From an uncultured Eubacteriales bacterium (GTDB taxonomy: Bacteria > Bacillota > Clostridia > Oscillospirales > CAG-272), in contig CAKROZ010000005.1 in assembly GCA_934373635.1 (NCBI GenBank), positions 20,356 to 84,355 of the forward strand: 64,000 bases of DNA. The letters run 5' to 3'. Shown here piece after piece: positions 15,360 to 57,255 of the stretch. The position numbers and the translations under genes were made by a program. The notes beneath the pieces are model-generated. The model was not told the DNA's origin, searched no databases, and saw nothing but the letters and a program-made list of their open reading frames with translations. Position 1 is the first letter of the stretch. Every line of letters begins with the position of its first letter.

Positions 15360-16034
15360 ATGACATTAGGAAAAATTATAAAAGAATATCGGGAAAAGCA
15401 TCAATTGTCGCAGCGGCAATTTGCTTCGTTATGCGATGTTTCAAACGGATATATTTCCATGCTTGAAGACGAACGAAATCCGAAAACGAACGAACCGATC
15501 GTACCTTCAATAGCGACTATGAAAAAACTCGCCAAGGCAATGGGCACATCGCTGAATGAACTAATGAGTATAGCCGATGATATGGAAGTATCCATGATGG
15601 ATCAGGAATTTCCAATTGCAAGTATCAAAAATCTCCGCCCCGTAGAAAAGCAAAGAATCCCGATGCTCGGCAGGATCGCCTGCGGTAAGCCGATCTACGC
15701 GGAGGAAGAGCATGAGTGCTATGTCGCTGCGGGGGCAAAGATGGACGCCGACTTCTGCCTCACCTGTCAGGGAGACAGTATGACGGGCGCGGGAATCCAT
15801 GACGGCGACATCGTTTTCATCAAGCAGCAGGAAGCCGTCGACAACGGGCAGGTCGCCGCAATCATCATCGGCGAAGAAGCAACGCTGAAGCGGGTGTACT
15901 ACTTCCCCGAGACCGCAAAGCTCGTTCTGCAAGCGGAAAACCCGAAGTACGAGCCGCTTGTCTACACTGGCGAAGAGCTGAACGGCATCAAAATTCTCGG
16001 AAGAGCCGTCGCCTATATGAGCGCCATCGTTTGA
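15360..16034 (+). CDS. cI: CI-like repressor (XRE HTH plus S24 LexA-like peptidase domain)
   Basis: The N-terminal HTH reads QLSQRQFASLCDVSNGYISMLE. The C-terminus carries CQGDSMTGAGI (Ser nucleophile) and ATLKRVY (Lys). Confidence 0.9.
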   Translation: MTLGKIIKEYREKHQLSQRQFASLCDVSNGYISMLEDERNPKTNEPIVPSIATMKKLAKAMGTSLNELMSIADDMEVSMMDQEFPIASIKNLRPVEKQRIPMLGRIACGKPIYAEEEHECYVAAGAKMDADFCLTCQGDSMTGAGIHDGDIVFIKQQEAVDNGQVAAIIIGEEATLKRVYYFPETAKLVLQAENPKYEPLVYTGEELNGIKILGRAVAYMSAIV

Positions 16035-16067
16035 TATTTCACTATTCATTATAAGGAGGCTTTTGAT

Positions 16068-16484
16068 ATGGTTCCCTCTTATGTTATTTTATTGTTCTGC
16101 GGCATTGCCCTTGTTCTTATTCTATTCAACTGGGCATCTTTGAAAGACAGCTCACGCGGAATGAAATACTGTTTCGGCGCGTGTCTCGCTTTCGGGCTTC
16201 TCTGCCTCATAGCAACCGGTGAGTACGCTTCCGGGTTCTATCAATTTGTGCGCTTGTTTGCCCTGTTCGATCTCGGCATCATGATTATCACATACAGTGC
16301 AGAAACCGAAACATTTCTCAACCCGGTCACATGTATTGCCGGCACAATGCTGATCCTCTTCAATCCTATCGTTCCCATATACTTGGATAAATCGACATGG
16401 CAATCAATCGATATATTCTCCGGCATTGCCTCTTTTGGTCTCGGATGTTACATTTTGAAGAAGAACATTGCGGGAGCAGAATGA
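16068..16484 (+). CDS. Lysogeny-module membrane protein, paralog 1 (138 aa)
   Basis: AAGGAGG RBS. Multi-TM protein. Shares the KYC.GAC.AFGL...FNPI.PIYL domain with the next gene. Confidence 0.6.
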   Translation: MVPSYVILLFCGIALVLILFNWASLKDSSRGMKYCFGACLAFGLLCLIATGEYASGFYQFVRLFALFDLGIMIITYSAETETFLNPVTCIAGTMLILFNPIVPIYLDKSTWQSIDIFSGIASFGLGCYILKKNIAGAE

Positions 16485-16525
16485 GCATCAACGTTTGATA
16501 TTCAATTCTATTATAGGAGTTTGAC

Positions 16526-17176
16526 ATGGATCTCTACCTCGTTGCCGCTATTATTATGTTGGCACTCTTTATTGCCGCGATCGTTACCGTTTACTCTGCC
16601 CGTGCATCTTTGAAAAGCAGACCGCTATGGATAAAATGCGCTCTCGGTATGGGCTTCGTTGTCGGAGTTTTCCTCATGGCGGCGTTCAACGAGCCGGAGT
16701 ATGTTGATGTCGGGATTGTTCTTGTTATTTTGTCACTCTGCGGCGTCATAGCGCTCGCGATTTATTCCAACCGTGCGCCGATTCCCGACGCAACTGTCGC
16801 GAGAAGTCGTGCGGGAATGGCAGTACGATTTTATAAAACTTTGAAGAGTAGCTCCGCGAAAGTCAAATACTGTTACGGTGCGTGCGCCGCTTTCGGGCTC
16901 TTCTGTATCATCGGAATGCTCGACTGCGGAAGCGGGTATTACCACTTTTTGCGCCTATTTACCCTGTTTGCACTCGGCATCACGATCATCGCGTTCGGCA
17001 AGGAGATCGGAACATTTTTCAGTCCCGTCACCTTGATTGCCGGGACACTGGTGATTCTTTTCAATCCGATCTCTCCCATATATTTAACCGCGGGAGCATG
17101 GCTGTTTATAGATTTCATCTCCGCCATCGTTTCCTTTTGGCTCAGCATCTATATTGTGAAGAAATCCACTCAATAG
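16526..17176 (+). CDS. Lysogeny-module membrane protein, paralog 2 (216 aa)
   Basis: TAGGAG RBS. Has extra N-terminal TM segments followed by the same ~110-aa domain as 16068..16484. Confidence 0.6.
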   Translation: MDLYLVAAIIMLALFIAAIVTVYSARASLKSRPLWIKCALGMGFVVGVFLMAAFNEPEYVDVGIVLVILSLCGVIALAIYSNRAPIPDATVARSRAGMAVRFYKTLKSSSAKVKYCYGACAAFGLFCIIGMLDCGSGYYHFLRLFTLFALGITIIAFGKEIGTFFSPVTLIAGTLVILFNPISPIYLTAGAWLFIDFISAIVSFWLSIYIVKKSTQ

Positions 17177-17186
17177 CACCCTGCAA

Positions 17187-17214
17187 TAAAAAAAGCGCCT
17201 TCCGAAGAAGGCGC
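17187..17214 (-). terminator. Terminator of the TAC operon
   Basis: Hairpin GCGCCTTC-CGAA-GAAGGCGC followed on the minus strand by a T7 run. Confidence 0.6.
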
Positions 17215-17242
17215 GGGGAGTAGGCTCTCGATTTATTTCATC

Positions 17243-17656
17243 TTAAATGTTTTTCGTCTCGGCTTTTGCAAAAAGCTCGTTGATGTTCATCACCGGGAGC
17301 GTATACGGAGGAATATTTGCATTTGTAGTAATCATCGTAATCAGCGATCTCAAATAGGGGAACAAGATGGCTGTCGTATTTGAGATCATAAGATCCCGCG
17401 ACTCTTCTTTATCCCAATCGGGCAAAGAGAAGACCCCCTCAATGCAGATATCCATCATAAACGGGGCATCCGATGCCTCAGTGATTCTAAATATTAAATC
17501 GATTGCCGCCGTGTCTGCATCGATTTTGTGAATAATACGCTTAAATTCCGGGTGCAATTCGATCTCATCCCCTTGAGATTGAAAAGACGCATTCAGTTTG
17601 AACGCCATATTTTTCACAACATAGTTTTCCAATGTCAATACACTGTTAACCGACAT
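17243..17656 (-). CDS. SecB-like chaperone (TAC chaperone)
   Basis: AILFPYLRSLITMITTNANIPPYTLPVMNINELF parallels E. coli SecB [34 protein letters not shown]. The likely start is ATG 17656 (GGAGGAG 9 nt upstream), which overlaps the antitoxin end by 11 nt. Confidence 0.7.
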   Translation of the reverse strand: MSVNSVLTLENYVVKNMAFKLNASFQSQGDEIELHPEFKRIIHKIDADTAAIDLIFRITEASDAPFMMDICIEGVFSLPDWDKEESRDLMISNTTAILFPYLRSLITMITTNANIPPYTLPVMNINELFAKAETKNI

Positions 17657-18209
17657 ACCGTTCATCTCCTCCGTTTCTATACGCAAAGAATTTTCCTCTT
17701 GTCGCATACTGCGATCTTGACGAATAATTTGTTTTTATACAAGCTTTATGTGTGTGAATGAGTTGCTCTATTCTCATGTTTTCGCTTTCCGATAAATCAC
17801 CTTTGCGAACGCTCCAAATATCCTCAAAAGCATCAACGTTTTTCATCAATCTGATGAGATTGTCATGACATTCGTCCTGAATCGCGCCGTTTTCGTATCG
17901 CGTTATTGTTTTTTCCCCAAACCCGAGCAGCTTCGAGAATGAAGCCTGCGAAAGCTTATACCTTGCACGAATATCGCGAATCTCCTCCGAAGTAAGTAAA
18001 TGCTCCGATTCTCTGTATACATCGTAAAAACGCTTCAAGGTAGCTCCGTCGAGATCTTCATCGATGATCTCTTCGCCGCAATGCGCACATACCCTGACCT
18101 TCGCGACAAGGGTGATCGGCTTTCCTTTTACGGATAATGTCTGTTCCTTTTCAATAATCTTGGTATCCGTCATTTCATCACAGTCGGGGCAATACCATGA
18201 TTCTTTCAT
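17646..18209 (-). CDS. MqsA-like antitoxin (Zn-ribbon plus XRE HTH) with a C-terminal extension
   Basis: Zn-ribbon CPDCDE...CAHCGEE, then the HTH LSQASFSKLLGFGEKTITRYENG. At 187 aa it is longer than the canonical ~130 aa. Confidence 0.78.
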   Translation of the reverse strand: MKESWYCPDCDEMTDTKIIEKEQTLSVKGKPITLVAKVRVCAHCGEEIIDEDLDGATLKRFYDVYRESEHLLTSEEIRDIRARYKLSQASFSKLLGFGEKTITRYENGAIQDECHDNLIRLMKNVDAFEDIWSVRKGDLSESENMRIEQLIHTHKACIKTNYSSRSQYATRGKFFAYRNGGDERYVG

Positions 18210-18262
18210 ACTCTTCTCCCCCTATTACAATTCAAATTTATGTTTGTTTGATCTTTGAGTTT

Positions 18263-18610
18263 TTAATCGCTATATTCATCTATATGATAACTCAACACTA
18301 ATAATTGCCCTTTGGGATCACTTTTAATCTTTAGTTTAATGTAAAGCCGTTCACCATGCAAATGCTTTTTGATGATCCATACGAACCCGGGGTATCTGGA
18401 ATCTCTGTCATTGTCTTGCCGCCACTGATCCTTAGGCGAAAGATGATAAATGTCGTCCCACACATCCTCGGTGGTGATGCCGAATTGCGACAGAGTTGAC
18501 ATGTACTTGCTCCTGCGATCTAATATTTGCGTGTTTCCGCTGTCAATTGCACATCGAACTTGCTCTAAAAATCGGTCAATTTCAGTCACAATCAAATCAC
18601 CCCCATTCAT
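18263..18610 (-). CDS. MqsR-like toxin (putative)
   Basis: LEQVRCAIDSGN, DVWDDIYHLSPKD and ERLYIKLKI...LLVLSYH parallel E. coli MqsR LSQVKKLVNAGQ, IWQDVY and QVYLKITV..LIVSFKE. The toxin gene comes before the antitoxin gene, as in mqsRA. Start uncertain (18610 or 18631). Confidence 0.6.
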   Translation of the reverse strand: MNGGDLIVTEIDRFLEQVRCAIDSGNTQILDRRSKYMSTLSQFGITTEDVWDDIYHLSPKDQWRQDNDRDSRYPGFVWIIKKHLHGERLYIKLKIKSDPKGQLLVLSYHIDEYSD

Positions 18611-18613
18611 GTT

Positions 18614-18658
18614 GGTATCATGTGATACCATATTAGCACAAAATTTTTTTCATGTCAA
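18614..18658 (-). promoter_or_regulatory. TAC promoter with a palindromic operator
   Basis: The minus strand reads TTGACA-17 nt-TAATAT. The perfect palindrome GGTATCA-CA-TGATACC (18614-18629) follows immediately. Confidence 0.55.
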
Positions 18659-18761
18659 TACCATTTGCAAAAATAACACAATTCGGAACAAATTGTTTAC
18701 AAAATTAGGTGAAAACAGAAAGAAAAATATCCACCTTCAAAACGAGAAAGCGTAATACAAA

Positions 18762-19805
18762 GTGATGATTAAAAAACTTGTAAAAAATGCGGACGGAAGA
18801 TACTCCCGATCCATCACGGGAACGGACGGAAAGCGTCACTATTTTCACGGGTACACACAATCCGAGGTTGAGCTACAAATTCAGAAGTTTCTCGCCTCCG
18901 AGGAACTCGGGCGGTTCTTCTCTACGGTAGCCGATGAATGGTGGAGCGACATCTCGGAGCGGATCGCCGTTCAATCCTATCGGAATTATAAACGCGGGTA
19001 CGACGAGGCTCGCAGCGTGTTCGGAACAATGCCCGTCGGGACTATCACTCCGCGCGATGTTGCCGCATATCTGCGTAGGTTTCAGGAACAGGGCTATGCC
19101 TACAAAACAATTGCAAATTATAAAATGGTATTGTCCTCTATTCTGACGCGGGCAATCTTTGAAGGGGATATTGATGTGAACCCGTGCGCGGTAGTGAAGT
19201 TGCCGAACGGATTGCCGAAAAAAAAGCGCCCTGCCGCTTCTCTTTCCGATGAGGAAAAGATTCTCGCGGCAAAAGGCGACTGTCTTCTCTACTATATTGC
19301 CATCATGACAGGGCTTCGGAAGGGCGAAATTCTTGCTCTTCGATGGAAGTGCTTCCACTTTGACCGACATGTCATCACGATAGACGCCTCCGTCGCTCAT
19401 GCCGGCGATCGTCCCATTGTAAAAGGAACCAAAAGCGAGGCGGGAACGCGCGAGGTTCCTCTTCTCCCCGCGCTCGCCGATGTGCTTCTGCCACTCTCTG
19501 TGGGAACGAACGAAGACGATTATCTTTTTTCCGCAGACGGCGGAAAGACCCCGCTCACAAACCGACGGTTTCTCACGATGACGCGACATCTGTCGGAAAA
19601 ATTCGGTTTGACCTCAACCCTGCATCAGCTACGGCATACCTATGCTTCCATCGCCGTGCAAAGCGGCGTAGAGCCGAAAGTGCTTCAATCCATCATGGGA
19701 CATCGACAGATCTCCACCACCTTGGATATTTACGCGGAAGTGCGCCGGGAAGGACTTGACAAGGCGATGGACGCCTTCGCCTCCTCTCCGCTCGGCAGGC
19801 GATAA
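18762..19805 (+). CDS. int: Tyrosine-type site-specific integrase
   Basis: 347 aa. GLRKGEILALRW (catalytic Arg), HQLRHTYAS (H-x-x-R), and GHRQISTTLDIYAE (His...Tyr). Confidence 0.9.
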   Translation: MMIKKLVKNADGRYSRSITGTDGKRHYFHGYTQSEVELQIQKFLASEELGRFFSTVADEWWSDISERIAVQSYRNYKRGYDEARSVFGTMPVGTITPRDVAAYLRRFQEQGYAYKTIANYKMVLSSILTRAIFEGDIDVNPCAVVKLPNGLPKKKRPAASLSDEEKILAAKGDCLLYYIAIMTGLRKGEILALRWKCFHFDRHVITIDASVAHAGDRPIVKGTKSEAGTREVPLLPALADVLLPLSVGTNEDDYLFSADGGKTPLTNRRFLTMTRHLSEKFGLTSTLHQLRHTYASIAVQSGVEPKVLQSIMGHRQISTTLDIYAEVRREGLDKAMDAFASSPLGRR

Positions 19806-32803: not shown

Positions 32804-32939
32804 GAATCGTTGGGGGAAGAAAACAAAAGCAAAAGATGAACGGTTTTTCGCTGATTCTCGGGTGAAAAAACAAAAGGGAAAAAGAACAGCTTCGTCAATT
32901 GTTAGGGGGAAGAAAAACAAAAGCCAAAAAAGAACAGCG
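32804..32939 (-). repeat. Intergenic repeat family C (two full copies and one partial copy)
   Basis: AATCGTTGGGGGAAGAAAACAAAAGCAAAAGATGAAC-type units at 32804-32843, ~32863-32890 and 32896-32939. A reverse-complement copy lies at 42131-42174. Confidence 0.6.
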
Positions 32940-32948
32940 CAAGAAATA

Positions 32949-32986
32949 AGAATCATTCATCATTCATCATTCTTAATTCTTAATTC
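32949..32986 (-). repeat. AT-rich heptamer array (GAATTAT)n, site 1
   Basis: The minus strand reads GAATTAA GAATTAA GAATGAT GAATGAT GAATGAT. It starts 4 nt after the def stop. Confidence 0.8.
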
Positions 32987-32989
32987 GCC

Positions 32990-33448
32990 TTATTCTTCGT
33001 CCGCCGAGCGGATCTCGACGTCGGTAAAGAGCTTCCCGTCGAGGTGGTCGCACTCGTGGCAGATGGCACGGGCGAGAAGGTCGGAGCCCGTCAGGTCATA
33101 GCTCTTCCCTTCCCTGTCGGTCGCGCGGACGGTGACGGTGCGGGGGCGGGAGGTGACGCCGTAGTGCCCCGGGATGGAGAGGCATCCTTCCGCCTCCTCC
33201 TGATGTCCCGAATAGGCGATGATTTTCGGGTTAATCATTTCATAGACTTTGCCGTTCTCGACCTCAATGACGACGACGCGGCGCAGAACGCCGACCTGCA
33301 CGGCGGCGAGCCCGCAACCGTTTGCCTGCCGCATGGTTTCGGTCATGTCGTCGAGAAGCTGAAGAATACGCGGGGTGATCGCCTCGACGGGGCGGGAGAC
33401 CTTTCGCAGCATGGGGTCGCCGTATTTTACGATTTTCAGAGTTGCCAT
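32990..33448 (-). CDS. def: Peptide deformylase
   Basis: GCGLAAVQVG, EGCLSIPG and HECDHLDG motifs. Confidence 0.95.
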   Translation of the reverse strand: MATLKIVKYGDPMLRKVSRPVEAITPRILQLLDDMTETMRQANGCGLAAVQVGVLRRVVVIEVENGKVYEMINPKIIAYSGHQEEAEGCLSIPGHYGVTSRPRTVTVRATDREGKSYDLTGSDLLARAICHECDHLDGKLFTDVEIRSADEE

Positions 33449-33519
33449 AATGGCTCCTTTCTTGTTCTCCGTGCGGGAGGGCGGATGTGATGGTGCCTTT
33501 GACCTTGCGGGGGCGGGAA

Positions 33520-33586
33520 GAATTCGGAATTCAGAATTATGATCAGAATTATGAATTAAGAATTATGAATTAAGAATTATGAATTG
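33520..33586 (+). repeat. AT-rich heptamer array (GAATTAT)n, site 2 (~10 units)
   Basis: GAATTCG GAATTCA GAATTAT GATCA GAATTAT GAATTAA GAATTAT GAATTAA GAATTAT GAATTG. Confidence 0.85.
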
Positions 33587-33598
33587 AAAATGTCGAGA

Positions 33599-33919
33599 GG
33601 TGGGTCGATGGCGCGGGGGGCTTTGATCTCGAGGATGGTTTCGGAGATGTGCTTTTTCGGAACGTGGTGGGTTGATGGCGCGGAGGGTGGTCTCGAGGAT
33701 GGTCGCGAAGATGTTTTTAGGTCGCGAGGGGGCGAGGCGATAGCGCGGGGGGTGGTCTCGAGGATGGTCGCGAAGATGTTTTTAGGTCGCGAGGGGACGG
33801 GTCGATGGCGCGGAGGGTGGTCTCGAGGATGGTTTCGGAGATGTGCTTTTTCGGAACGTGGTGGGTTGATGGCGCGAAGTGTTTGGTCGCGGGAACGGTC
33901 TCGGGATGTATTTTGTCAG
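33599..33919. repeat. Tandem array of ~65-bp units (4 full copies and 1 degenerate copy) between priA and def
   Basis: Units start at 33599, 33666, 33731, 33795 and 33860. There are two subtypes in the order a-b-b-a-partial. All begin GGTGGGTCGATGGCGCGG... and no unique spacers separate them. Confidence 0.8.
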
Positions 33920-36171
33920 ACCGTCAGGGGGTTCAGGTCGATGGCGAGGGCGACGGATTTTTTATCGGCAAAGGTGAGAAGAATTTCGTGAAAAAGTCTT
34001 CTTGTTGTCTTGTTTAGTTTACATTTTACGACCATACGGAGGCGGAAGCGGTCATTGAGCTTATAGACCTGCGCCTCGAAGGGTCCGTAGACGACAAAGG
34101 GGTAATTTTTATAGGGATCGACGGTGAGCTTTTCTTTCAGGTAAGAGGTCAGTTGCTCGGCTGCGGAGAAGAGCTCCTCCTCGCACTCTGCGGACAGGGT
34201 GATCTGCACCATGTCGCAAAAGGGAGGATAGGAGAGCTCCCGCCGTAAGGCGATCTCTCCTTCATAGAAGGCGTCGTAGTCCTGCTTACAGGCGAGGCGA
34301 ATGATCTCGTTGTCGGGAGAGTAGGTCTGAATGACCGCGCGCCCGGCATCTCCCGCTCTCCCTGCCCTGCCGATAACCTGCGTGAGGAGGGAGAAGGTGC
34401 GCTCCGAAGCGCGAAAATCGCTGACATAAAGAGAGGTATCCGCCAACACGACACCGACCAGCGTGACCTTCGGGAAATCGTGTCCCTTCGTCACCATCTG
34501 CGTGCCGAGGAGAACGTCGGCGTGTCCCGCGCGAAAGTCCTCGAGCATACGGTCATAAGAGAATTTCTCCCCCGTAGTGTCGGCATCCATGCGCATGACG
34601 CGGGAATCGGGCAAGAATTTCGAAAGGTCGCCCTCCACCCTTTGCGTCCCGTAGCCGAGATAGGAGAGGTGCTCTCCTCCGCAGGAGGGGCAGACCTTCG
34701 GCGGCGGCTCACTGTGTCCGCAGAGATGGCAGAGCATCCGTCCGCCGCCTCTGCCCGTATGATAGGTCAGGGAGACCGAGCAACGCGGACAGGTGATAAC
34801 GTCTCCGCAGCTCTTACAGCTGATCTGGCTGTTATAGCCGCGGCGGTTCAGAAAGAGGATCGCCTGTTTTTCCTTCTCCGCGACCTCGGACAAGGATTCG
34901 AGCAGGCGGCGGCTGATCGGTGAGGAGTTGCCGAGGCGAAGCTCCTCACGCATATCGACGATCACCGCCTCGGGCAGGCGGGCACCGCCGTAGCGCTCCC
35001 GCAGAGGGATGAGGGTATATGCCCCTTCCTTGGCTTTATAAAAGCTCTCGACGGAAGGGGTGGCGGAGGCGAGAAGCATCAGGGCGTTATGCCGCCCCGC
35101 ACGGTAGGCAGCGACGTCACGCGCGTGGTACTTCGGATCACTCTCGGATTTATAGGTATGCTCATGCTCCTCGTCAATGACGATCATACCGAGGTTCGGG
35201 ATCGGGGAGAAGACGGCGGAGCGCGTCCCGATCACGAGATCGACGGCGCCCGCGCGAATCCTGCGATAGGCATCGAGCCGTTCCCCCTGCGATAAAGAGG
35301 AGTGAATGACGGCGACCCGCTCCCCGTACCGACGGCAGAAGATCTGCACGGTCTGGGGCGTCAGGGCGATCTCGGGCACCATCATAATGACGGTCTTGCC
35401 GAGGGCGAGGGTACGGTCGATGAGTTTCATGATGACCTTGGTCTTCCCGCTTCCCGTCACGCCGTACAAAAGGGCGGCGCGGGGGGCGTCCTCGGTAAGA
35501 AGTGTGTCCGCCGCGCGGTAGGCGGTCATCTGCGCATCGCTGAGGTTGATCTCGGAGGTATCCCTCTCCCCTGCGAGTGCCGCATAGGGATTCCGGAGCT
35601 CCTCCTCCGTATCGACACGCAGAATCCCCTTCTCGGTCAGTGCCGAGAGGTGCGCCGCCGTGACCTCGGGCAGGGCGCGGAGCAATTCCCCGTCCGCCTC
35701 GCCGATGGGCAAAAGATACTCGAGAATGCGGCGCTGTCCCTCACTGCGCACGCCCTTTCGCCCCGAGGCGGCAAGGAGCGCGCGGGTCTCCTCTTCCGAG
35801 AGGGTGAGGGTATAGCGCTTCCGATAGCGGATGTTGGGGCTCTCGGTCATGGCGCCCGGGGGAAGGACGGTACGCACCGCCTCGCCGAGGGTGCAGAGCG
35901 TATATTCCTTCAGAAACAGACAGAGCCCGAGCATTTCCTCATCGAGAAAATAGCGGTCGTCAAGAACCGCCTGCACGGGCTTTGTCCTCGGGCTGTCGGT
36001 CGTGTCCTTTACGTTCAGGACGACGCCGAGGCGCATATGATTTGCCGCGCCGAAGGGCACACGCACGAGAGCCCCCGGACGGAGCTTCCCTGCGAGGGCG
36101 GGCGGGCAGAGATAGTCGAACGGGCGGTCGAGTGCGTGCGGGGCATCTGTCAGGCAGACCTCACAATACAT
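33916..36171 (-). CDS. priA: Primosomal protein N' (replication restart helicase)
   Basis: LLYGVTGSGKT (Walker A), VIDEEHE (DEAH-like), and a Cys-rich Zn region CKSCGDVITCPRCSVSLTYH...CHLCGH...CPSCG. Confidence 0.92.
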   Translation of the reverse strand: MYCEVCLTDAPHALDRPFDYLCPPALAGKLRPGALVRVPFGAANHMRLGVVLNVKDTTDSPRTKPVQAVLDDRYFLDEEMLGLCLFLKEYTLCTLGEAVRTVLPPGAMTESPNIRYRKRYTLTLSEEETRALLAASGRKGVRSEGQRRILEYLLPIGEADGELLRALPEVTAAHLSALTEKGILRVDTEEELRNPYAALAGERDTSEINLSDAQMTAYRAADTLLTEDAPRAALLYGVTGSGKTKVIMKLIDRTLALGKTVIMMVPEIALTPQTVQIFCRRYGERVAVIHSSLSQGERLDAYRRIRAGAVDLVIGTRSAVFSPIPNLGMIVIDEEHEHTYKSESDPKYHARDVAAYRAGRHNALMLLASATPSVESFYKAKEGAYTLIPLRERYGGARLPEAVIVDMREELRLGNSSPISRRLLESLSEVAEKEKQAILFLNRRGYNSQISCKSCGDVITCPRCSVSLTYHTGRGGGRMLCHLCGHSEPPPKVCPSCGGEHLSYLGYGTQRVEGDLSKFLPDSRVMRMDADTTGEKFSYDRMLEDFRAGHADVLLGTQMVTKGHDFPKVTLVGVVLADTSLYVSDFRASERTFSLLTQVIGRAGRAGDAGRAVIQTYSPDNEIIRLACKQDYDAFYEGEIALRRELSYPPFCDMVQITLSAECEEELFSAAEQLTSYLKEKLTVDPYKNYPFVVYGPFEAQVYKLNDRFRLRMVVKCKLNKTTRRLFHEILLTFADKKSVALAIDLNPLTV

Positions 36172-40276: not shown

Positions 40277-40305
40277 GATAATTAAGAATTATGAATTATG
40301 AATTG
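40277..40305 (+). repeat. AT-rich heptamer array, site 3
   Basis: GATAATTAA GAATTAT GAATTAT GAATTG, 14 nt upstream of the rpiB-like ATG. Confidence 0.8.
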
Positions 40306-40440
40306 TCTTCATTCTTGCTTTGTTTTGTTGACGCGGAGTGTTTTTTGGAGGGAGAGGGCGAGGCTTGAAGAGGAAGTGTCGCTTACTCCTCATCCACCGT
40401 TTCGCGGTCCCCCTGTCTCGCTACGGCTCGGGTTCACTTG
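40306..40440 (+). repeat. Composite intergenic module B, copy X
   Basis: TCTTCATTCTTGCTTTG..TTGTTGACGCGG...GCTTACTCCTCATCC...CCCCTGTCTCGCTACGGCTCGGGTTCAC. Aligns with 41915-42045. Confidence 0.6.
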
Positions 40441-41805: not shown

Positions 41806-41871
41806 AATTTTGTCCTTTCAAAAGAGCAATCTGAATACTACTATTATAGAAGATTTTATTCGAAAAGTCAA

Positions 41872-41914
41872 GAGAATTGATAATTATGAATGAAGAATTA
41901 TGAATTATGAATTG
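41872..41914 (+). repeat. AT-rich heptamer array, site 4
   Basis: GAGAATT GATAATTAT GAATGAA GAATTAT GAATTAT GAATTG, 67 nt upstream of the aspS ATG. Confidence 0.8.
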
Positions 41915-42045
41915 CCTTAATTCTTGCGTTGGGCTGTTGACGTGGGGATGAGGGGGAGATGAGGGGGCGTTGACGGGAGGATGTGCGATTCCTTGCTTAC
42001 TTCTCATCCTTCAGTCGTAGGCTGACCCCTGTTTCGCTGCGGCTC
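41915..42045 (+). repeat. Composite intergenic module B, copy Y
   Basis: CCTTAATTCTTGCGTTGGGCTGTTGACGTGG...GCTTACTTCTCATCC...CCCCTGTTTCGCTGCGGCTCGGGCAC. Confidence 0.6.
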
Positions 42046-42130
42046 GGGCACACTCGGGCTCTTTCATTTCGGCGGTGTGAGATTCGGTGCTCTCGTGACG
42101 CTCTCTTACTCGTAGGAGAAGGCTTAGATA

Positions 42131-42428: not shown

Positions 42429-45400
42429 TTAGTTACCCTGTGCGCCGAGATAGGCTTGCGCCGCAAGAATATAGCGATAGAACGCATTCAGGTAGGCGGG
42501 AATCTCGCCCTGACTCTTGGTATATGCCATATAGAGATCAAAGCTATATGTGATCTTGTGACCCTCAAGCTCCACCGTCAGAGCATTTGTATAGTTCGAA
42601 ACATAAATGTCGCCGACGATGATGTAGGGGTCACTTCCTTCGACTGTGGTGACTTTGTAGGACTTCGTTACACCGTTGATCGTTACCTCCACGGTTTCGG
42701 CGGTTGCGTACTTGGTGCTATCGAGGAAGAAGATGAAGCCCGGGGTACTCGCGAGTTTGAGCGATGCGGCCGTGATGTTGCCCTTTTTGAGGTCTTCCGA
42801 TGTTGTCGATTTGTCCCACTTTGTGTCGGAAAGCAGGGCTTTATAGGTATCGAGTCTATCAGTGATTGCCTTGAAGCCGGGATCTGCGACGGTCTTGTTG
42901 CTGAATTCCGCGGACATCTCACGAACGTAATCGAGGATCGCAACAACGAGTTTCTTGCCGCTCTCGGAGCCTTTTTCATCTGCGAGAACCGCCGTTGCAT
43001 ACTTCACGAGAGAGGTCTTCACCGTGTAGGTTGCCGCCGTTTCACCGTTTTTGAGATTCACCTCGAGGGTGAACGCCTCGGAGAGGTCCTTCGGGGAGAT
43101 GTCGTCGATCTTGAAGAGGTAGTAGTCTCCATCACTCAAGGTGACAAGATCTTTGTTTTCGAAAGTGACATTGATCTTTGTTTTCCCATCGGGATGCGTA
43201 TACGTCACGCCATTGATGAAGCCGTCGTTTCTGAAGTAGAGGTTGAAGGTGATGTTTGCGTAGAGGGTGAGGTTGCCCGTAATCTTCGACTCGGTGGTTT
43301 TGAGCGTTGCATCATAAGAAGTAGTGTCACCTGCTACTACAGCCTTCGTTGCTTTCGCATACCAGTAATACGTGTCGAAAGCAGAGTTGCTGTAAACGGG
43401 AGTTTCTCCCTGTTTCCACGTTTCCGACACCTCTTCGGTTCCCACCTTGAAGGTTACCGTACCGGTATTATTCGCATCGGTCGCCGTGTAGTAATACTTG
43501 TCGGTACCGACGGTCACCTCATTGATACGCGCGGAAACAAAAGCATTGCCGTCAAGTGTGACGGTGTTCAGCATGTCGGAGTACGACAAAGAGACTTTAG
43601 AGTAGATCTCGGTATTGTTCATCGCAACGGAACCGTTCTTCTCCGAAACCGAAGTACTCGTCGTGGCAAGCTGTCCGGAGGTCGTATAAATCTTTGAGTT
43701 ATTAACGGTTGCGTCCAGAGTTTTTACTGCGTTAAGCTCGTAGAATAACGGCATTTGCAAGGCAAAGGTACAATCACTCAATTTGACACTACCACCTGCA
43801 TTCTGAAGCTGAAAAACGCCGGCGGTGCGCGCTTTTTCGTTGATATAATCGACCTTTGCGACATCCGCGGTGTTAGAAGCGGCACCATTCATTTTGACAA
43901 AAATGTTTCCGGTTACCTTCAGTCTTTCCGTGGTCACCGCGGAATCCGATGCTTGACCGACATACAATTTACCATTGCCCACGACAAAGAGGACTCCGCC
44001 TTGCGAGTCGGAAATCTGTGCCCCTTGTGCGGTAGAATAGACATAAAGAGCTAAATTTTCTGCACTTGTGCGAATGATACCGTTATTCAGCTGCGCTGTC
44101 GTCGTAAGGCTATGTCCGTTCAAATCAAGATCCACCGTGACAGCAGTACGAATAACTACTCCAGTTTTTACTTCATAGTCCCGGTACAATTTGATTTTCG
44201 TTGCAACTTTCACGCCTTCGAGAGCGGTTTTGAGTTTATTAAAGTCGGTATCGGTATAGATTGTCTTACCGCCGTCCGTCACTACTTCAAACGCCTTGGC
44301 AACCTTTTCATACTCGGGTGTAGCATCAAGCGTTTGACCCGCCGACGACTCGGGAAGTGCGCCGGTGATACCCGGAATGTTCCACTTTCCACTCGGCTTG
44401 AGTACATAATCCCCCTCTTCCTGTTCGGAAAAGGCATGTTCATACTTCGGCGTGCTCCCTACTGCCCATTTTTGGGTAGCAAGCGTACTATCACCATCTT
44501 TAAAATTGATGGTTGCATATTGATTCACCACGCCGTATTTGAGCGTCTCGACTTCGTCAATGTGCGCGTAACTATATCCTTCCGCGAGGGAAAGTCCGTT
44601 TTGCTCTTCGCACAAGCGCACCCCTTCGGAAAGCGTAACAGGGAAAAGTTCTGCATTACACGTCAGCGCCTTCGACGAGACAAGATCCGTACCGGTCATT
44701 GTGACGGTTCCGACCTTATTCGTCACCGAACCATCCGCCGCAGTAATCGGCGTATCCCCCGTTGCCGTTGCATTAATCGAAGACGCAGCTATCGTCGCGC
44801 TGAAGTTTGTTGCACTTGTATTGTATGCATAGAACAGCGGGAACTGCGAGGTGCCGAGGTTCAAGGTGCAATTTGTCATATTGACGGCGGCACTTGAACC
44901 GCGAAGGTCAAAAGCGCCGTTTCTGCGGGCATACTTTGCGTTGTATGTAATCTGTTTCAAATTCACCTTTGCTTCGCTACCATTGATCTTTGCGATGGTC
45001 GCAGCCTCAATCGTCAGCGGAAAAACCGTCGTTCCCGCGTCCGGCGCGTATCCGACATGCAGCTCAGCACCAGCACCAGCCGCGGTGAAAATGGGGGTAT
45101 TAATACCGGATGCCGTCAAAAGCGAAGCACCGGCTTTGGTAGAATAGACATACAGCTTCTGCGTCGTGTAAAAAACGGCGTTATCCAAACTAACCGCTTC
45201 CGTAAGGCTATGTCCGTTCAAATCGAGCTCTACTATGGCGTCCTGATACGTAATCTTCGCGAATGCACTCTTTGTTTCACCAAAGGCAGCCAAGGCTTCG
45301 CACGAATAGTTCTGATACAATTTGATTTTCGTTCTCCCGGCTTTCGCGTTCGCGAGAGTGTCGGAAAGCTTTTCAGGCGAGCCATCTGCGATATATTCGG

Positions 45401-45536
45401 GGGCGGCGTCGCCTACGGTCATCTCAAAACCCGTCGTGTGTTCTGTCTCATCCGCCGCCGACGCCGACACAAAAAGAATGCCGCACAGCAAGGCGAGGGT
45501 CAAAAACAGGATGAGGATTTTGCTTTTTGTTTTCAT
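42429..45536 (-). CDS. Large secreted repeat protein (1035 aa), function unknown, possibly beta-helix/adhesin-like
   Basis: Signal peptide MKTKSKILILFLTLALLCGILFVSASA. Internal duplication around KIKLY..Y....DLNGHSLT...LYVYST. No LPXTG or other anchor seen. AT-richer than its flanks. Confidence 0.72.
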   Translation of the reverse strand: MKTKSKILILFLTLALLCGILFVSASAADETEHTTGFEMTVGDAAPEYIADGSPEKLSDTLANAKAGRTKIKLYQNYSCEALAAFGETKSAFAKITYQDAIVELDLNGHSLTEAVSLDNAVFYTTQKLYVYSTKAGASLLTASGINTPIFTAAGAGAELHVGYAPDAGTTVFPLTIEAATIAKINGSEAKVNLKQITYNAKYARRNGAFDLRGSSAAVNMTNCTLNLGTSQFPLFYAYNTSATNFSATIAASSINATATGDTPITAADGSVTNKVGTVTMTGTDLVSSKALTCNAELFPVTLSEGVRLCEEQNGLSLAEGYSYAHIDEVETLKYGVVNQYATINFKDGDSTLATQKWAVGSTPKYEHAFSEQEEGDYVLKPSGKWNIPGITGALPESSAGQTLDATPEYEKVAKAFEVVTDGGKTIYTDTDFNKLKTALEGVKVATKIKLYRDYEVKTGVVIRTAVTVDLDLNGHSLTTTAQLNNGIIRTSAENLALYVYSTAQGAQISDSQGGVLFVVGNGKLYVGQASDSAVTTERLKVTGNIFVKMNGAASNTADVAKVDYINEKARTAGVFQLQNAGGSVKLSDCTFALQMPLFYELNAVKTLDATVNNSKIYTTSGQLATTSTSVSEKNGSVAMNNTEIYSKVSLSYSDMLNTVTLDGNAFVSARINEVTVGTDKYYYTATDANNTGTVTFKVGTEEVSETWKQGETPVYSNSAFDTYYWYAKATKAVVAGDTTSYDATLKTTESKITGNLTLYANITFNLYFRNDGFINGVTYTHPDGKTKINVTFENKDLVTLSDGDYYLFKIDDISPKDLSEAFTLEVNLKNGETAATYTVKTSLVKYATAVLADEKGSESGKKLVVAILDYVREMSAEFSNKTVADPGFKAITDRLDTYKALLSDTKWDKSTTSEDLKKGNITAASLKLASTPGFIFFLDSTKYATAETVEVTINGVTKSYKVTTVEGSDPYIIVGDIYVSNYTNALTVELEGHKITYSFDLYMAYTKSQGEIPAYLNAFYRYILAAQAYLGAQGN

Positions 45537-45948: not shown

Positions 45949-46656
45949 ATGGAAGATATGGAGCGCTACGGCGACTATAACGAGTTCGAAGACGATATAC
46001 CGAAGAAGCGGCGGGGCGGATTTTTGCGGGTACTACAGATCCTTGTGGCGCTCGTTTGCCTTGCGACGGCGGGGGTCATCGGGTATCGGTTATATTTATT
46101 TGATTACTACCCTGCGTCGATCAAGCAATTGGTGTTCACCGAGCGGCTCACCGAGCTTTATCACGAGGTCGGGAGCGATGGGCTCGGTGTCAGGACGCAG
46201 AAGCTGCGATTCCCTTACGACGACAACGACAAGGGGAATTTCTTCTGCGATCATCTTTACGTAATCTCCGCGGCGGGTGAGCTTCAGATCTCGGTGCGGT
46301 ACAACGAATCGGCGCTTGCCGACGTGGCGGCACGCTACGGGTTCGAGGCACTGTCCCCTTCGGACGATCTTTTCACCTTCCGCATCACCGACAATGTGGG
46401 GCGGGACTACGGTGCGCCCGTATATGTTGCCTGTGACTCTTACGCGATGTATCATTATTACAAGCTCGTCTTCGACGGCATTGAGTTCGACACGCCCTCC
46501 GACGGCGGCGAGGCGCCCGCGTGGATTCGTCTCGAGATCTTCGTCAAGGGGGCAGCGGAGGAAGGCGCTTATTCCTATGTGGCGATCTATGAAAATAATG
46601 AAGACTACGCGAAATTCTCGGAATACAAGCCGAGCCGAAAGGAGCTTCCCTCATGA
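45949..46656 (+). CDS. Membrane-anchored hypothetical protein
   Basis: Trimmed to ATG 45949. TTGACA-17-TATACT promoter at 45870-45898. One TM segment (VLQILVALVCLATAGVIGY). Confidence 0.55.
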   Translation: MEDMERYGDYNEFEDDIPKKRRGGFLRVLQILVALVCLATAGVIGYRLYLFDYYPASIKQLVFTERLTELYHEVGSDGLGVRTQKLRFPYDDNDKGNFFCDHLYVISAAGELQISVRYNESALADVAARYGFEALSPSDDLFTFRITDNVGRDYGAPVYVACDSYAMYHYYKLVFDGIEFDTPSDGGEAPAWIRLEIFVKGAAEEGAYSYVAIYENNEDYAKFSEYKPSRKELPS

Positions 46657-47198
46657 TTCGTGATCTTACCGTGCGGGTCAAGCCGCAAAACAAGTGTGCG
46701 CACACGTTGTGCATCGTTTTTCTCGCTCTTGCGGCGGCGGGATTCATCGCTTCGTTTTCCGTGCCTTTGTACCGCGGGATCATTCAGCTTTTTGCCGCGA
46801 TCCTTATCGTGGCGGCGCTGACGGTCTATGCGCGCTATATCGGAGCGAAATATTCTTACGAGATCTTCACCGACGGCGGGGAGGGCGAGCCCCTCTTCAT
46901 CGTGCGGCAGGAGACGGGAAAGCGCATCAGTATTCTTTGCCGTGTCGCGCTCGCGGGGATGTCGGAAATCGTCCCCCTCTCCATGAAGGAGGCAAAAGAA
47001 AAAGCGAAGAGCTCGGGGGCTCATCGCTATCTTTACACGCAGACGCTCTTCCCTGCCCGCGTGTATTATGTCAAGGTACGCACGCGACACGAGAAAGCCG
47101 ATCTGATCCTTGAGGGGTCGGAGGAGTTTTTTGAGATGTTGAAGCTTGCGGCGGGGGAGGCGGCGATGCTTTATCCGCCGTTTGCGGAGGAAGAATGA
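46653..47198 (+). CDS. Two-TM membrane protein (bacterial PH-like architecture, tentative)
   Basis: ATGA overlap with the upstream gene. Two TM helices followed by a soluble domain (YSYEIFTDG...LFIVRQETGKRISI). Confidence 0.5.
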   Translation: MIRDLTVRVKPQNKCAHTLCIVFLALAAAGFIASFSVPLYRGIIQLFAAILIVAALTVYARYIGAKYSYEIFTDGGEGEPLFIVRQETGKRISILCRVALAGMSEIVPLSMKEAKEKAKSSGAHRYLYTQTLFPARVYYVKVRTRHEKADLILEGSEEFFEMLKLAAGEAAMLYPPFAEEE

Positions 47199-47234
47199 GA
47201 TAATTATGAATTATGAATTATGAATTATGAATTT
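47199..47234 (+). repeat. AT-rich heptamer array, site 5
   Basis: GATAATTAT GAATTAT GAATTAT GAATTAT GAATTT. Starts at the base after stop codon TGA 47196-47198. Confidence 0.85.
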
Positions 47235-47309
47235 GGTGCTAAGCGGGCGACCGTCTTGTAAATATTATGAAAAAATTTGAATTCCGAACATGAGGTGAAG
47301 ACAATTAGA

Positions 47310-47666
47310 ATGGACAATCTGATTCTTGATAAAAGCAAGGCGTTTGCAGTGCGTATCGTAAACCCCTATCGACATTTGGTTGCAGAAAAGCACGAATTCA
47401 CCTTGGCAAAACAAATACTGAAAAGCGGCACGAGCGTTGGTGCAAATTGCAGAGAAGCAATCAGGGCGCAAAGTACAGCGGATTTCATATCGAAAATGAA
47501 TATCGCCTTAAAGGAAGCCGACGAGACGGCATACTGGCTCGAATTGCTCCGCGAGACCGATTACCTGACGCAGGAACAATACGAAAGTATTTATGCCGAT
47601 TGTCAGGCGCTCATCAAATTGCTTTTCAGTATTGTAAAAACGACAAAAATTAAAGTGCAGAATTGA
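47310..47666 (+). CDS. Four-helix-bundle protein (23S rRNA intervening-sequence protein / Avd-like family)
   Basis: Trimmed to ATG 47310. AKQILKSGTSVGANCREA...SKMNIALKEADETAYWLELL is the family signature. Confidence 0.8.
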   Translation: MDNLILDKSKAFAVRIVNPYRHLVAEKHEFTLAKQILKSGTSVGANCREAIRAQSTADFISKMNIALKEADETAYWLELLRETDYLTQEQYESIYADCQALIKLLFSIVKTTKIKVQN

Positions 47667-47807
47667 TTCAAACCGCCGCATCACCATTACCGGTGGTAAT
47701 GTGATGACTTCATTACTGCTTCACTCCCATCAGTGAAAACGCGATAGCTCCGACTCATTCTGATTTTAGAAAAAAGTATGATACAAAAAGAGCACCGCAT
47801 GAAGTAA

Positions 47808-47850
47808 GATCATTCATAATTCATAATTCATCATTCATAATTCTTAATTA
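47808..47850 (-). repeat. AT-rich heptamer array, site 6 (inverted relative to site 5)
   Basis: The minus strand reads TAATTAA GAATTAT GAATGAT GAATTAT GAATTAT GAATGATC. It contains the stop codon (47844-47846) of the next gene. Confidence 0.85.
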
Positions 47851-48377
47851 AAATAGCTTTTTGGGGTGAATTTTTTTATTAGGGTGCGGAGGCGCGGGGT
47901 GGTGTCGAAGAGGACGGCGGCGCTTTTGCCGTTTTCCGCGAAGCGGAGGAGGACGGTGGAGTCTGCGGTTTTTGACGAGGAATAGTCGTAGAAACGTCCC
48001 TCCGTGTCGGCGCGCTCCTCGCGCGGGGTCCTGCCGTCGTAGGCGCCTTCGGCGTCCTGCGTGCGCAGGGTGAGCATCGGTCGAATCCCCTTCTTCGGCT
48101 TTCTGCCCGACCGGCAGTAGAAGGTGAGCGTCCCGCTCTCAAAGGTGACGTAAATATCGTAGGAGACGCAGCGCCACGTGAAGCAGACGAGGATCCACAG
48201 AAGAAGCGGGGCAACGGCGAAAAACGGAACGAGGCGGGAGAGATAGCAAACGAGGAAAAATCCGGCGAAAAAGGTGACATAGAGAAGAACCAAGAGGACG
48301 GCGTGAAAAAGAAGCCTGCCCTCTTTTTTCTTTGTGTAGGAATAGTCGGCGTGATTCAGTGCTTCGGCATCGAACAT
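47844..48377 (-). CDS. Two-TM membrane protein (bacterial PH-like architecture, tentative)
   Basis: 177 aa. Two TM helices followed by YDIYVTFESGTLTFY.... Confidence 0.5.
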   Translation of the reverse strand: MFDAEALNHADYSYTKKKEGRLLFHAVLLVLLYVTFFAGFFLVCYLSRLVPFFAVAPLLLWILVCFTWRCVSYDIYVTFESGTLTFYCRSGRKPKKGIRPMLTLRTQDAEGAYDGRTPREERADTEGRFYDYSSSKTADSTVLLRFAENGKSAAVLFDTTPRLRTLIKKFTPKSYFN

Positions 48378-56398: not shown

Positions 56399-56474
56399 TA
56401 ACACGAAGCACGTGAGACCTGAGGATTTATTTTTCTCTAACAGATTTTTACGATAGGAAAAGGATTGCTTGAAT

Positions 56475-57191
56475 ATGTGTAAAATCCGAAATGTGCCCAT
56501 GAGAGAACCACTGAAGATCATCGCGACGATACGAACGGGGTACAAAGAAAAATTCGGGATCCCGCGGCAGAGCGGAATTGCGGACGAGGCGATCGGAGAG
56601 ATCGTCTTTCTGCCCCCTTACAACCGAGCTGAGGCGGTGCGCGGCATCGAGGGCTTCTCGCACCTCTGGCTCCTCTGGGAATTCTCCGAGGCGAAGCGGG
56701 AGGGATGGTCGCCGACGGTGCGACCGCCACGGCTCGGAGGAAATCGGCGGGTCGGTGTCTTCGCCACCCGCTCCCCCTTCCGTCCGAATCCGATCGGGCT
56801 CTCTTCCGTGCGTCTTCTCGGCGTGGATGATCGCACCGAGGGTCCCGTCCTGCGGGTGGCGGGCGCCGACCTCCTCGACGGGACGCCGATCTACGACATC
56901 AAGCCATATCTCGCCTACACCGACGCGCATCCCGAGGCGGTGGGCGGTTTTTCCGACGGGGTGAGGGATCACGCGCTCCGCGTCGAATTCCCGACGGAGC
57001 TTGCGCAAGGGGTGCCCGAAGACATCCGCGAGGTATTTCTCACAATCCTTCGGAACGACCCGCGTCCTGCCTACCAAGAGGACGACGACCGCATTTATTA
57101 TTCGGACTACGGCGAATATGAGGTCGCGTTTCGCGTAACGGGAGGCGTCGCCGTGGTGACGGATTTGAAAATTAAGAATTATGAATTATGA
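56475..57191 (+). CDS. trmO: tRNA (t6A37-N6)-methyltransferase TrmO (TsaA/YaeB family)
   Basis: FGIPRQSG, FSHLWLLWEF, FATRSPFRPNPIG and DGTPIYDIKPY motifs. The start is ambiguous (56469, 56475 or 56499). The last 7 codons lie in heptamer array 7. Confidence 0.85.
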   Translation: MCKIRNVPMREPLKIIATIRTGYKEKFGIPRQSGIADEAIGEIVFLPPYNRAEAVRGIEGFSHLWLLWEFSEAKREGWSPTVRPPRLGGNRRVGVFATRSPFRPNPIGLSSVRLLGVDDRTEGPVLRVAGADLLDGTPIYDIKPYLAYTDAHPEAVGGFSDGVRDHALRVEFPTELAQGVPEDIREVFLTILRNDPRPAYQEDDDRIYYSDYGEYEVAFRVTGGVAVVTDLKIKNYEL

Positions 57192-57195
57192 ATTG
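57168..57195 (+). repeat. AT-rich heptamer array, site 7
   Basis: AAAATTAA GAATTAT GAATTAT GAATTG. Encodes KIKNYEL plus the TGA stop of trmO. Confidence 0.8.
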
Positions 57196-57255
57196 ATCTT
57201 AAGTCCGGCGTATCCGATTCGGAATGCGGGGGGCGCTTGAAAGACGATTCTGAAC

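Follow-up and report, generated by a model that had tools for sequence, protein, structure and literature searches.

The window analysed here, a 64,000-nucleotide stretch of contig CAKROZ010000005.1 from an uncultured Eubacteriales bacterium, holds an AT-rich cassette (47199-47850) between two convergent genes: a single gene for a four-helix-bundle (4HB) protein, bracketed by inverted arrays of a seven-nucleotide unit. The question raised by this locus is whether a solitary gene has come to lie between repeats of its host or whether gene and arrays form one element, and of which kind. The answer we favour is that the cassette is probably a selfish element of the type of the intervening sequences (IVSs) of 23S rRNA: a 4HB gene together with its own termini, one inward-pointing array on each side, each comprising about five heptamers built on the core AAT(T/G). 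Two comparisons carry this reading: as judged from alignments, the interior of the cassette differs between strains (the gene in some, a filler or an inverted, diverged copy in others), and in the genomes surveyed the array-gene-array design accompanies the protein subfamily across phyla and is also found in its Xanthomonas branch.

The left terminal array (47199-47235, plus strand, polarity inward) comprises 4.6 copies of AATTATG at 47202-47233, with five AATT cores at 47202, 47209, 47216, 47223 and 47230, and begins 3 nt past the TGA of the left flanking gene (46653-47198, plus strand; 181 aa, two predicted membrane helices). It is adjoined by an inner junction segment, GGTGCTAAGCGGGCG (47236-47250, plus strand), which is present in the alignment of all three alleles described below, which places the left breakpoint of the variable interior at about 47250. 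An AT-rich leader (47251-47309, plus strand), of which about 35 nt are homologous in the allele L091, carries GAGGTG at 47292-47297, 12 nt 5' of the ATG of the 4HB gene (47310-47666, plus strand; 118 aa). The gene is followed by an imperfect 12-bp hairpin (47679-47706, plus strand) and a variable 3' spacer (47707-47808, plus strand), the latter missing in many family members, where the stop codon leads directly into the array. The right terminal array (47809-47850, minus strand) points inward with six cores, its minus-strand units being AATTAAG, AATTATG, AATGATG, AATTATG, AATTATG and AATGAT; the outermost unit contains the stop codon (47844-47846) of the convergent right flanking gene (47844-48377, minus strand; 177 aa, membrane-like). 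Both flanking proteins are hydrophobic, and profile searches gave no family match for either.

The two arms constitute a 33-nt inverted repeat that is 94% complementary, and in the predicted RNA the element is closed by the array stem, whether the minimum-energy or the centroid fold is taken. This layout agrees with the original prediction, which had described convergent membrane-protein genes, an array beside the left gene and an inverted array holding the right gene's stop; the AT-richer interior reported there could also be quantified, GC content being 39.3% for 47199-47850 (among the lowest 0.5% of 652-nt windows) as opposed to 55.6% for the window and GC at third codon positions being 0.50 in the 4HB gene against 0.70-0.79 in its neighbours. 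The 3' hairpin it had pointed out is seen in the predicted fold, but is not followed by a T-run, did not register as a terminator and is not preserved in either the L091 or the L093 copy. An Rfam search of the whole window gave no rRNA and no other RNA family: the element lies between two protein-coding genes and not in helix 25 or 45 of a 23S rRNA.

The predicted family of the protein was borne out by matches to PF05635 (94.2 bits, cut-off 33.8) and TIGR02436 (110.9 bits, cut-off 24), the 'S23p' or 23S rRNA IVS proteins; these were its only family matches, with no HUH/Y1 (IS200/IS605-like) transposase among them. The AlphaFold2 model (mean predicted local distance difference test score, pLDDT, 95.4) exhibits four helices, at residues 2-25, 31-51, 56-82 and 88-117, and superimposes on BT_0352 of B. 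thetaiotaomicron (2RLD; 65% identity) with a template modelling (TM) score of 0.91, on XCC0516 of Xanthomonas (2GSC) with 0.80 and on Avd from diversity-generating retroelements (DGRs), free and in the DGR particle (4DWL, 8UB7), with 0.76-0.83. Sequence matches among solved structures were limited to 2RLD and, weakly, 2GSC, each with five chains. XCC0516 and Avd have been described as pentamers (PMC4990558; DGR preprint) and the DGR particle contains an RNA element to which the Avd pentamer binds (DGR preprint); by analogy, the window protein would be homopentameric as well.

Gene and arrays across the subfamily

The homologue scan covered one genome per species and 80 loci from at least eight phyla, with proteins 53-69% identical, from Bacteroidales, Clostridia, Thermoguttaceae, Treponemataceae, Fibrobacter, Verrucomicrobia, Cloacimonadales, Blastocatellia and Spirosoma (cultured isolates: Bacteroides nordii and Spirosoma arboris). 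Arrays of period 7, and of no other period, flank the gene on both sides within 300 nt at 72 of these loci: the state that had led the original prediction to speak of an orphan, a stand-alone gene between inverted arrays, is in fact the normal one. At 63 of the 72 loci the upstream unit is the reverse complement of the downstream unit (at most one mismatch), whilst the units themselves vary from locus to locus (AATTCGG, AATGCGT, AATGCAC, AATTCAT, AATTGAG, CATTGAA, AGTGTAA and others). An arm matches its own partner with a median score of 21, compared to 3 for the partners at other loci. When 32 array pairs were aligned without gaps, 91% of the cells were paired as against 74% in shuffled pairs (0 of 500 shuffles reach this value) and 26-38% in slid registers, and 26 of 31 pairs display changes on both sides. 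Enrichment of G.U wobbles, considered as a sign of RNA selection, was not seen in the array pairs.

Exactly five cores (32 nt) are present in 83 of 139 arrays. The unit reads A (129/134), A or G, T (134/134), T or G and then three free positions; nearly all variation within arrays is T/G at position 4, plus position 7, and the G variant always lies on the strand reading toward the open reading frame (ORF). The polarity of the arrays relative to the gene is therefore fixed, and gene and arrays form one unit. Array density is 15-fold higher beside the gene than elsewhere in the same loci (2.19 compared to 0.146 per kb); extra, solitary arrays are nevertheless common and match the local unit in 12 of 31 cases (39%), as opposed to 14% for foreign units, and the gene is thus flanked by inverted copies of a repeat dispersed in its genome, the arrangement known from repetitive extragenic palindromic (REP) sequences and their REP-associated tyrosine transposases (RAYTs). 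Across phyla, protein identity is 62% between loci sharing a unit class and 56% otherwise, a difference reached by 0 of 2000 within-phylum permutations, which indicates that protein and arrays travel or evolve together. Both neighbours are co-oriented with the 4HB gene at 32 of 46 assessable loci (25% expected by chance) and the stop codon of the upstream gene falls inside the array, by a median of about 2 nt, both figures resting on crude ORF calls; in many copies the start codon adjoins the upstream array, or the stop codon the downstream one, with zero spacer.

The family as a whole is very large: among the 8,000 candidates scored there are at least 7,923 close relatives with E < 1e-10, and 10,589 clusters at 50% identity match the window protein. 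A collection of 2.9 million viral contigs contained only 10 relatives, with arrays present there too. A role as defence or phage protein was rejected, PADLOC and PHROGs searches having given no match. One pair of loci, in a Blastocatellia (L064) and a Bacteroidota (L065) metagenome-assembled genome, share identical upstream arrays in near-identical elements, which reflects either a very recent transfer or a binning error.

The same design is encountered in X. campestris, with accB and accC as the neighbours of the homologue (locus L109, 1418-1880), which shares 86% identity with XCC0516 and about 17% with the window protein. The units GGGAATC, GGGAGTG, GAGAATC and GGGAATC form an array that starts 6 nt downstream of the accB stop, whilst its inverted counterpart extends exactly to the accC ATG; the predicted RNA has a closing stem with six pairs and one mismatch per unit. 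The accC start codon abuts the C-rich downstream array, with no Shine-Dalgarno sequence visible. In the modelled RNA the array stem would place the accC start next to the accB stop, a hint that translation may be coupled across the element. GGGAATC arrays have been described as a dispersed, often convergently paired Xanthomonas repeat, the 4HB gene not being mentioned (PMC4692102).

Insertion, strain polymorphism and other arrays of the window

The flanking proteins were looked up in public assemblies. Contigs with 96-97% identical flanks contain the same cassette. Three sister species, whose homologues of the left gene are 83, 81 and 66% identical, possess the same convergent pair with a spacer of 64-78 bp between the two genes; in each case this spacer holds one terminator-like hairpin, no array and no 4HB gene. 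This synteny shows, at the level of sequence comparison, that the cassette was inserted, arrays included, at an intergenic site holding only a terminator hairpin in the sister species; as the empty sites are devoid of arrays, the arrays arrived with or as part of the inserted DNA. The inserted cassette that had been proposed is thus supported by empty sites in sister species and by alternative alleles in the species complex, although the single array that the original prediction had expected at an empty site is not there.

Two further alleles reveal what varies between the arrays. L007 and L008 (flanks 95% identical; left flanking gene 99% identical in L007) retain the right array and, on the left, the 15-nt junction GGYGCTAAGCGGGCG beside an array that is shortened; in their interior, a GC-rich filler of about 130 bp, without a 4HB gene, replaces the window sequence from about 47250 to 47816. 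This filler is a dispersed repeat (GCTTACTCCTCATCCACCGYTTCGCGGTCCCCC) that is also located beside the solitary arrays at 40279 and 41873. In L091, the left-flank protein is again 99% identical and nt 708-1819 match window positions 47249-46138, but the 4HB copy, with 86% DNA identity, is inverted relative to the left gene and a different gene lies on its far side. The two 4HB copies give a ratio of nonsynonymous to synonymous divergence (dN/dS) of 0.08, indicating strong purifying selection on the protein, and a dS of 0.73, whilst the flanks differ by only about 5%: on this divergence, the copies are not simple alleles, and the arrays have been the site of an exchange or rearrangement of interiors. 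One sample yielded two contigs that break off within the left and the right array, which fits assembly breaks at a variable site.

Elsewhere the element occupies other sites. In L093 it is located after a serine dehydratase gene, where a tandem duplication (2907-3760) comprises array, leader and gene followed by array, leader and a decayed gene fragment, the frame of the first gene reading into the next array (...NVELRIKN); this is one example of several relatives whose C-terminal peptide is the heptamer array in frame (...NVELRIKN = GAATTAAGAATTAAGAAT). In three Acutalibacteraceae species (L038, L045 and L049) the element lies between smpB and the tmRNA gene ssrA with slightly different units (AATGCGT, AATTCGC), which could mean that the element has long been inherited vertically whilst its arrays drifted, or that the site is a preferred one.

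The arrays are not peculiar to the cassette: the window contains 29 matches to the heptamer dimer pattern (0.23 expected by chance), and five further, solitary arrays of the AATTATG-type unit are present, every one at a gene boundary. Five units at 32952-32986 (minus strand) lie between def (32990-33448) and the next gene; here a short inverted partner, AAGAAATAAGAAT, is located at 32938-32950 and the fold reaches -18 kcal/mol (z = -3.8). Ten units at 33518-33587 (plus strand) lie upstream of def and are followed by five 65-bp tandem repeats. Four units at 40279-40306 (plus strand) are followed by CTTCATTCTTGC and the GC-rich dispersed repeat, as are about six units at 41873-41915 (plus strand) by CTTAATTCTTGCG and the same repeat, and four units at 57169-57196 (plus strand) overlap the stop of the gene 56469-57191. 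Using 28 family members as tblastn queries, no other 4HB copies or decayed remnants were found near the solitary arrays, all hits being noise. We also considered these arrays as collapsed hairpin pairs, for which there is weak support at best: of the eight folds made (five arrays, three of them on both strands), only both strands of 32925-32995 and the plus strand of 41865-41950 were better than shuffles (z below about -2.7). A short inverted remnant, CTTA(N)TTC(T/A)TGCG, is often observed on the inner side of arrays (32938-32986, 40279-40318, 41873-41927, 47780-47850), and arrays of this kind may be collapsed or decayed elements. A role as promoters was rejected: the match TTCATA-17-CATAAT (9/12) stems from the AATTATG unit alone, cannot be produced by other units, and points outward, antisense to the neighbours.

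Two GC-rich repeats accompany the arrays. The 65-bp unit forms five tandem copies at 33593-33915, directly inside the ten-unit array and between def and a gene for 751 aa (33916-36171). The dispersed repeat, consisting of GCTTACTCCTCATCCACCGYTTCGCGGTCCCCC and a CCTTCCCC...GGGGAAGG hairpin, has no Rfam match and recurs beside heptamer arrays at 40375-40420 and about 42026-42067 of the window, at 1990-2023 of L007, at 152-221 of L091 and at 3798-3836 of L093. Upstream of the cassette's left neighbours, 42429-45536 encodes a secreted-looking protein of 1035 aa with internal repeats and no Pfam or NCBIfam match; its position holds different genes in the sister species. A low-GC island at 15360-19805 comprises a LexA-like repressor with helix-turn-helix and peptidase S24 domains (15360-16034), two DUF6804 paralogues (16068-16484 and 16526-17176) with a common 247-nt repeat of 70% identity, a SecB-like chaperone beside an MqsA-type antitoxin (17243-18209), resembling a toxin-antitoxin-chaperone module, and a tyrosine integrase (18762-19805). 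The island is probably a small integrated element unrelated to the cassette; the statement that the window has no transposase must be qualified by this integrase, albeit one that belongs to an unrelated island 28 kb away.

A candidate mechanism and its rivals

If the cassette is an IVS-type element, the following course of events can be proposed. It would have no promoter of its own and be transcribed by read-through from a co-oriented upstream gene, as suggested by the co-orientation of neighbours, by upstream stops inside the array and by the frequent absence of spacers; the window cassette has a co-oriented gene upstream and a convergent one downstream. In the transcript, the arms are predicted to pair into a stem of about 32-38 bp, similar to that of ORF-bearing 23S rRNA IVSs, and RNase III might then cut this stem, freeing the ORF mRNA and leaving the host RNAs intact, which would explain why insertion is tolerated in operons and in rRNA. 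The precedent is the Coxiella burnetii 23S rRNA IVS, where an S23p ORF lies after 3-4 GACAGAT heptamers within a 28-bp terminal stem that RNase III cleaves at the first repeat (PMC4990558). The conserved, polar, five-fold core, the pentameric homologues and the binding of an RNA element by Avd further suggest a hypothesis in which a homopentameric ring binds a five-core array with one AAT(T/G) core per subunit. Array-bound protein could then control or propagate the arrays, in analogy to the trp RNA-binding attenuation protein (TRAP) with its (G/U)AG repeats or to RAYTs with REP sequences, and recombination within the arrays would swap and flip the interiors.

Several observations weigh against this reading. 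Arrays persist without the 4HB gene, both as solitary arrays and in the filler allele, and no mobilising enzyme is associated with the element in the gene maps of the window and of the relatives. No direct repeat is visible in the outer flanks of the window element (GAATGAGAT / AAAATAGC), and hence no target-site duplication, the empty sites of the sister species being too diverged to give exact junctions for this comparison; the X. campestris element, flanked by TGATTTGAC and ATGCTCG, likewise displays no direct repeat. Of 69 metagenome loci of the distant branch, 33 have period-7 arrays upstream and 28 have them downstream, and the association therefore reaches this branch but is less complete there. 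As to the stem, the T/G variation at position 4 is uncompensated in the other arm, so that factors other than pairing also shape the arrays; where a cell departs from Watson-Crick pairing, it is mostly T.C or G.A and not G.U, and the covariation of the arms could stem from a copy mechanism instead of selection on a stem. The match of five cores to five subunits is possibly numerology, binding itself being hypothetical, and the protein of the Coxiella IVS is apparently not made (PMC4990558). The crude ORF calls mentioned above likewise temper the argument from neighbouring genes.

How these points count becomes apparent when other explanations are considered. That arrays persist on their own is what would be expected if they were an intergenic repeat of the host, between two copies of which the 4HB gene had landed or been retained, for example by homologous recombination: five more arrays in the window have no 4HB gene or remnant, the gene-less L007/L008 allele retains both arrays, the loci of other carriers contain about 0.15 extra arrays per kb, and dispersed heptamer arrays have been documented in Xanthomonas, Nostoc and Beggiatoaceae without mention of a 4HB gene. 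Such a hotspot, which the original prediction had entertained, should however already hold an array where the gene is missing, and the empty sites in three sister species do not; moreover, 72 of 80 homologues bring their own matched array pair with its own unit and fixed polarity toward the ORF, arrays are 15-fold enriched at the gene and protein similarity follows the unit class across phyla. We therefore regard this explanation as rather improbable. A DNA transposon, with the arrays as terminal inverted repeats (TIRs) of a non-autonomous element that resembles a miniature inverted-repeat transposable element and is moved in trans, the protein as cargo or accessory and RNA pairing as incidental, accounts for the symmetric, inward-pointing, TIR-like ends, for the presence/absence and inversion polymorphism, for the different sites in related genomes (serine dehydratase in L093, smpB-ssrA in L038, L045 and L049) and for the uncompensated position 4, which runs contrary to a pure RNA constraint. 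The TIR-like ends and the polymorphism bear out that much of the non-autonomous mobile cassette originally suggested; the lack of a target-site duplication at the window and the accB/accC elements and of a transposase in any gene map does not, and a pure DNA element would not be expected to be co-oriented with its neighbours or to have arrays that adjoin start and stop codons. We know of no transposon family with TIRs made of tandem heptamers, and overall consider a transposon unlikely.

Two explanations that begin from the protein's relatives or from the site itself fare worse. The sister-species sites hold a terminator hairpin exactly where the element is located, and the arrays are the dominant stem of the fold, so that an array hairpin serving the host as insulator or stabiliser could be imagined to have replaced an ancestral bidirectional terminator, the ORF being incidental. 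An incidental ORF would not be under strong purifying selection (dN/dS 0.08) or 55-69% identical across phyla, the stem has no T-run, and most family members lie between co-oriented genes, where a terminator would do harm: this explanation is very improbable. A degenerate DGR, in which the Avd gene remained after loss of reverse transcriptase and template repeat, draws on the Avd-like fold (TM 0.76-0.83 to 4DWL and 8UB7) and on a weak match to the Avd model, but the score of 20.6 bits for the Avd equivalog NF033474 is far from its cut-off of 80. In agreement with the original prediction, the genes called in the 6 kb on each side include no reverse transcriptase, the window contains no pair of template and variable repeats (TR/VR), and the array-flanked, stand-alone state is the rule in the subfamily; we rejected a DGR remnant on these grounds and give it practically no credence. 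The IVS-type selfish element thus remains our preferred reading of the cassette.

Comparison with known systems

The closest described relative is the ORF-bearing 23S rRNA IVS, although the window element lacks the rRNA location by which an IVS is defined. Both contain an S23p/PF05635 ORF between terminal inverted repeats that close a long stem, both are about 430-760 nt in size and both can be regarded as selfish elements of unexplained mobility; with the Coxiella IVS, the window element further shares a terminal repeat made of tandem heptamers. Leptospira reportedly also possesses an ORF-bearing 23S rRNA intervening sequence, said to have been described by Ralph and McClelland in 1993. The differences are that the window element lies between protein-coding genes instead of in helix 25 or 45, that its unit is AATTATG and not GACAGAT, that solitary arrays of its unit are dispersed in the genome and that RNase III processing, established for the Coxiella IVS, is here inferred only.

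The dispersal of the unit recalls REP and REPIN sequences and their RAYTs, where a gene is likewise flanked by inverted copies of the genome's dispersed intergenic repeat and the repeat type is specific to the gene lineage, just as identity follows unit class here. Unlike a RAYT, however, the protein is a four-helix bundle of 118 aa with no HUH/Y1 transposase domain and no known catalytic activity, and the repeats are tandem heptamer arrays instead of single palindromes. Comparable arrays are the dispersed GGGAATC arrays of Xanthomonas (PMC4692102), the cyanobacterial short tandemly repeated repetitive (STRR) sequences with GGGGA(C/T)T and the TAACTGA arrays of Beggiatoaceae (PMC4679880): intergenic tandem 7-nt units in 2-10 or more copies, frequently in convergent pairs (70-75 in Xanthomonas) and abutting start or stop codons. 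G-quadruplex or translational roles have been proposed for them with no link to a 4HB protein (PMC4692102, PMC4679880), yet the Xanthomonas 4HB gene is flanked by exactly the GGGAATC arrays of the former study. With Avd, the window protein shares fold and Pfam family and possibly the pentameric RNA-binding barrel, which is a feature of Avd (DGR preprint), but it scores below the Avd cut-off, has no reverse transcriptase or TR/VR pair and is encoded by a stand-alone gene with heptamer termini. As for mechanism, TRAP is a ring-shaped homo-oligomer that reads (G/U)AG repeats equal in number to its subunits. The analogy is one of mechanism only (a ring, a match of repeats to subunits and a core position tolerant of U/G), as the folds are unrelated and binding of arrays by the 4HB protein is hypothetical.

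The window locus is therefore an ordinary member of its class, and the interest lies in the class. Our literature search, beyond which other papers may exist, retrieved no general description linking the PF05635 family to inverted heptamer arrays, only the Coxiella IVS paper noting heptamers. The known kind is the S23p-encoding IVS; what appears to be undescribed is that an element with five-unit heptamer arrays is the usual form in which this large family occurs outside rRNA, and is tied to dispersed arrays. PF05635/TIGR02436 is a very large family whose function is known only for Avd, and heptamer arrays (STRRs, GGGAATC, TAACTGA) have been catalogued since 1990 without origin or partner protein; the cassette and its relatives suggest that 4HB family, heptamer arrays and ORF-bearing rRNA IVSs belong together, in an element that inserts between genes, even within the accBC operon, and into rRNA. 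More tentatively, and with considerable doubt, PF05635 pentamers may be the trans-acting partners of bacterial heptamer arrays, each ring reading a five-unit array of the AAT(T/G)NNN type, one core per subunit, and the gene and its arrays acting as a 'master copy' that seeds solitary arrays, in which case ORF-bearing rRNA IVSs, Xanthomonas GGGAATC arrays and possibly cyanobacterial STRRs would be one element class. Three descriptive puzzles in this way become directly testable in cultivable hosts (Bacteroides thetaiotaomicron with BT_0352 and Xanthomonas campestris), and in practical terms metagenome assemblies break at the arrays, which also mark where strains have undergone rearrangement. 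If the wider idea is true, the class represents a symbiosis of repeat and gene analogous to that of REP sequences and RAYTs, but built on a non-enzymatic nucleic-acid-binding ring.

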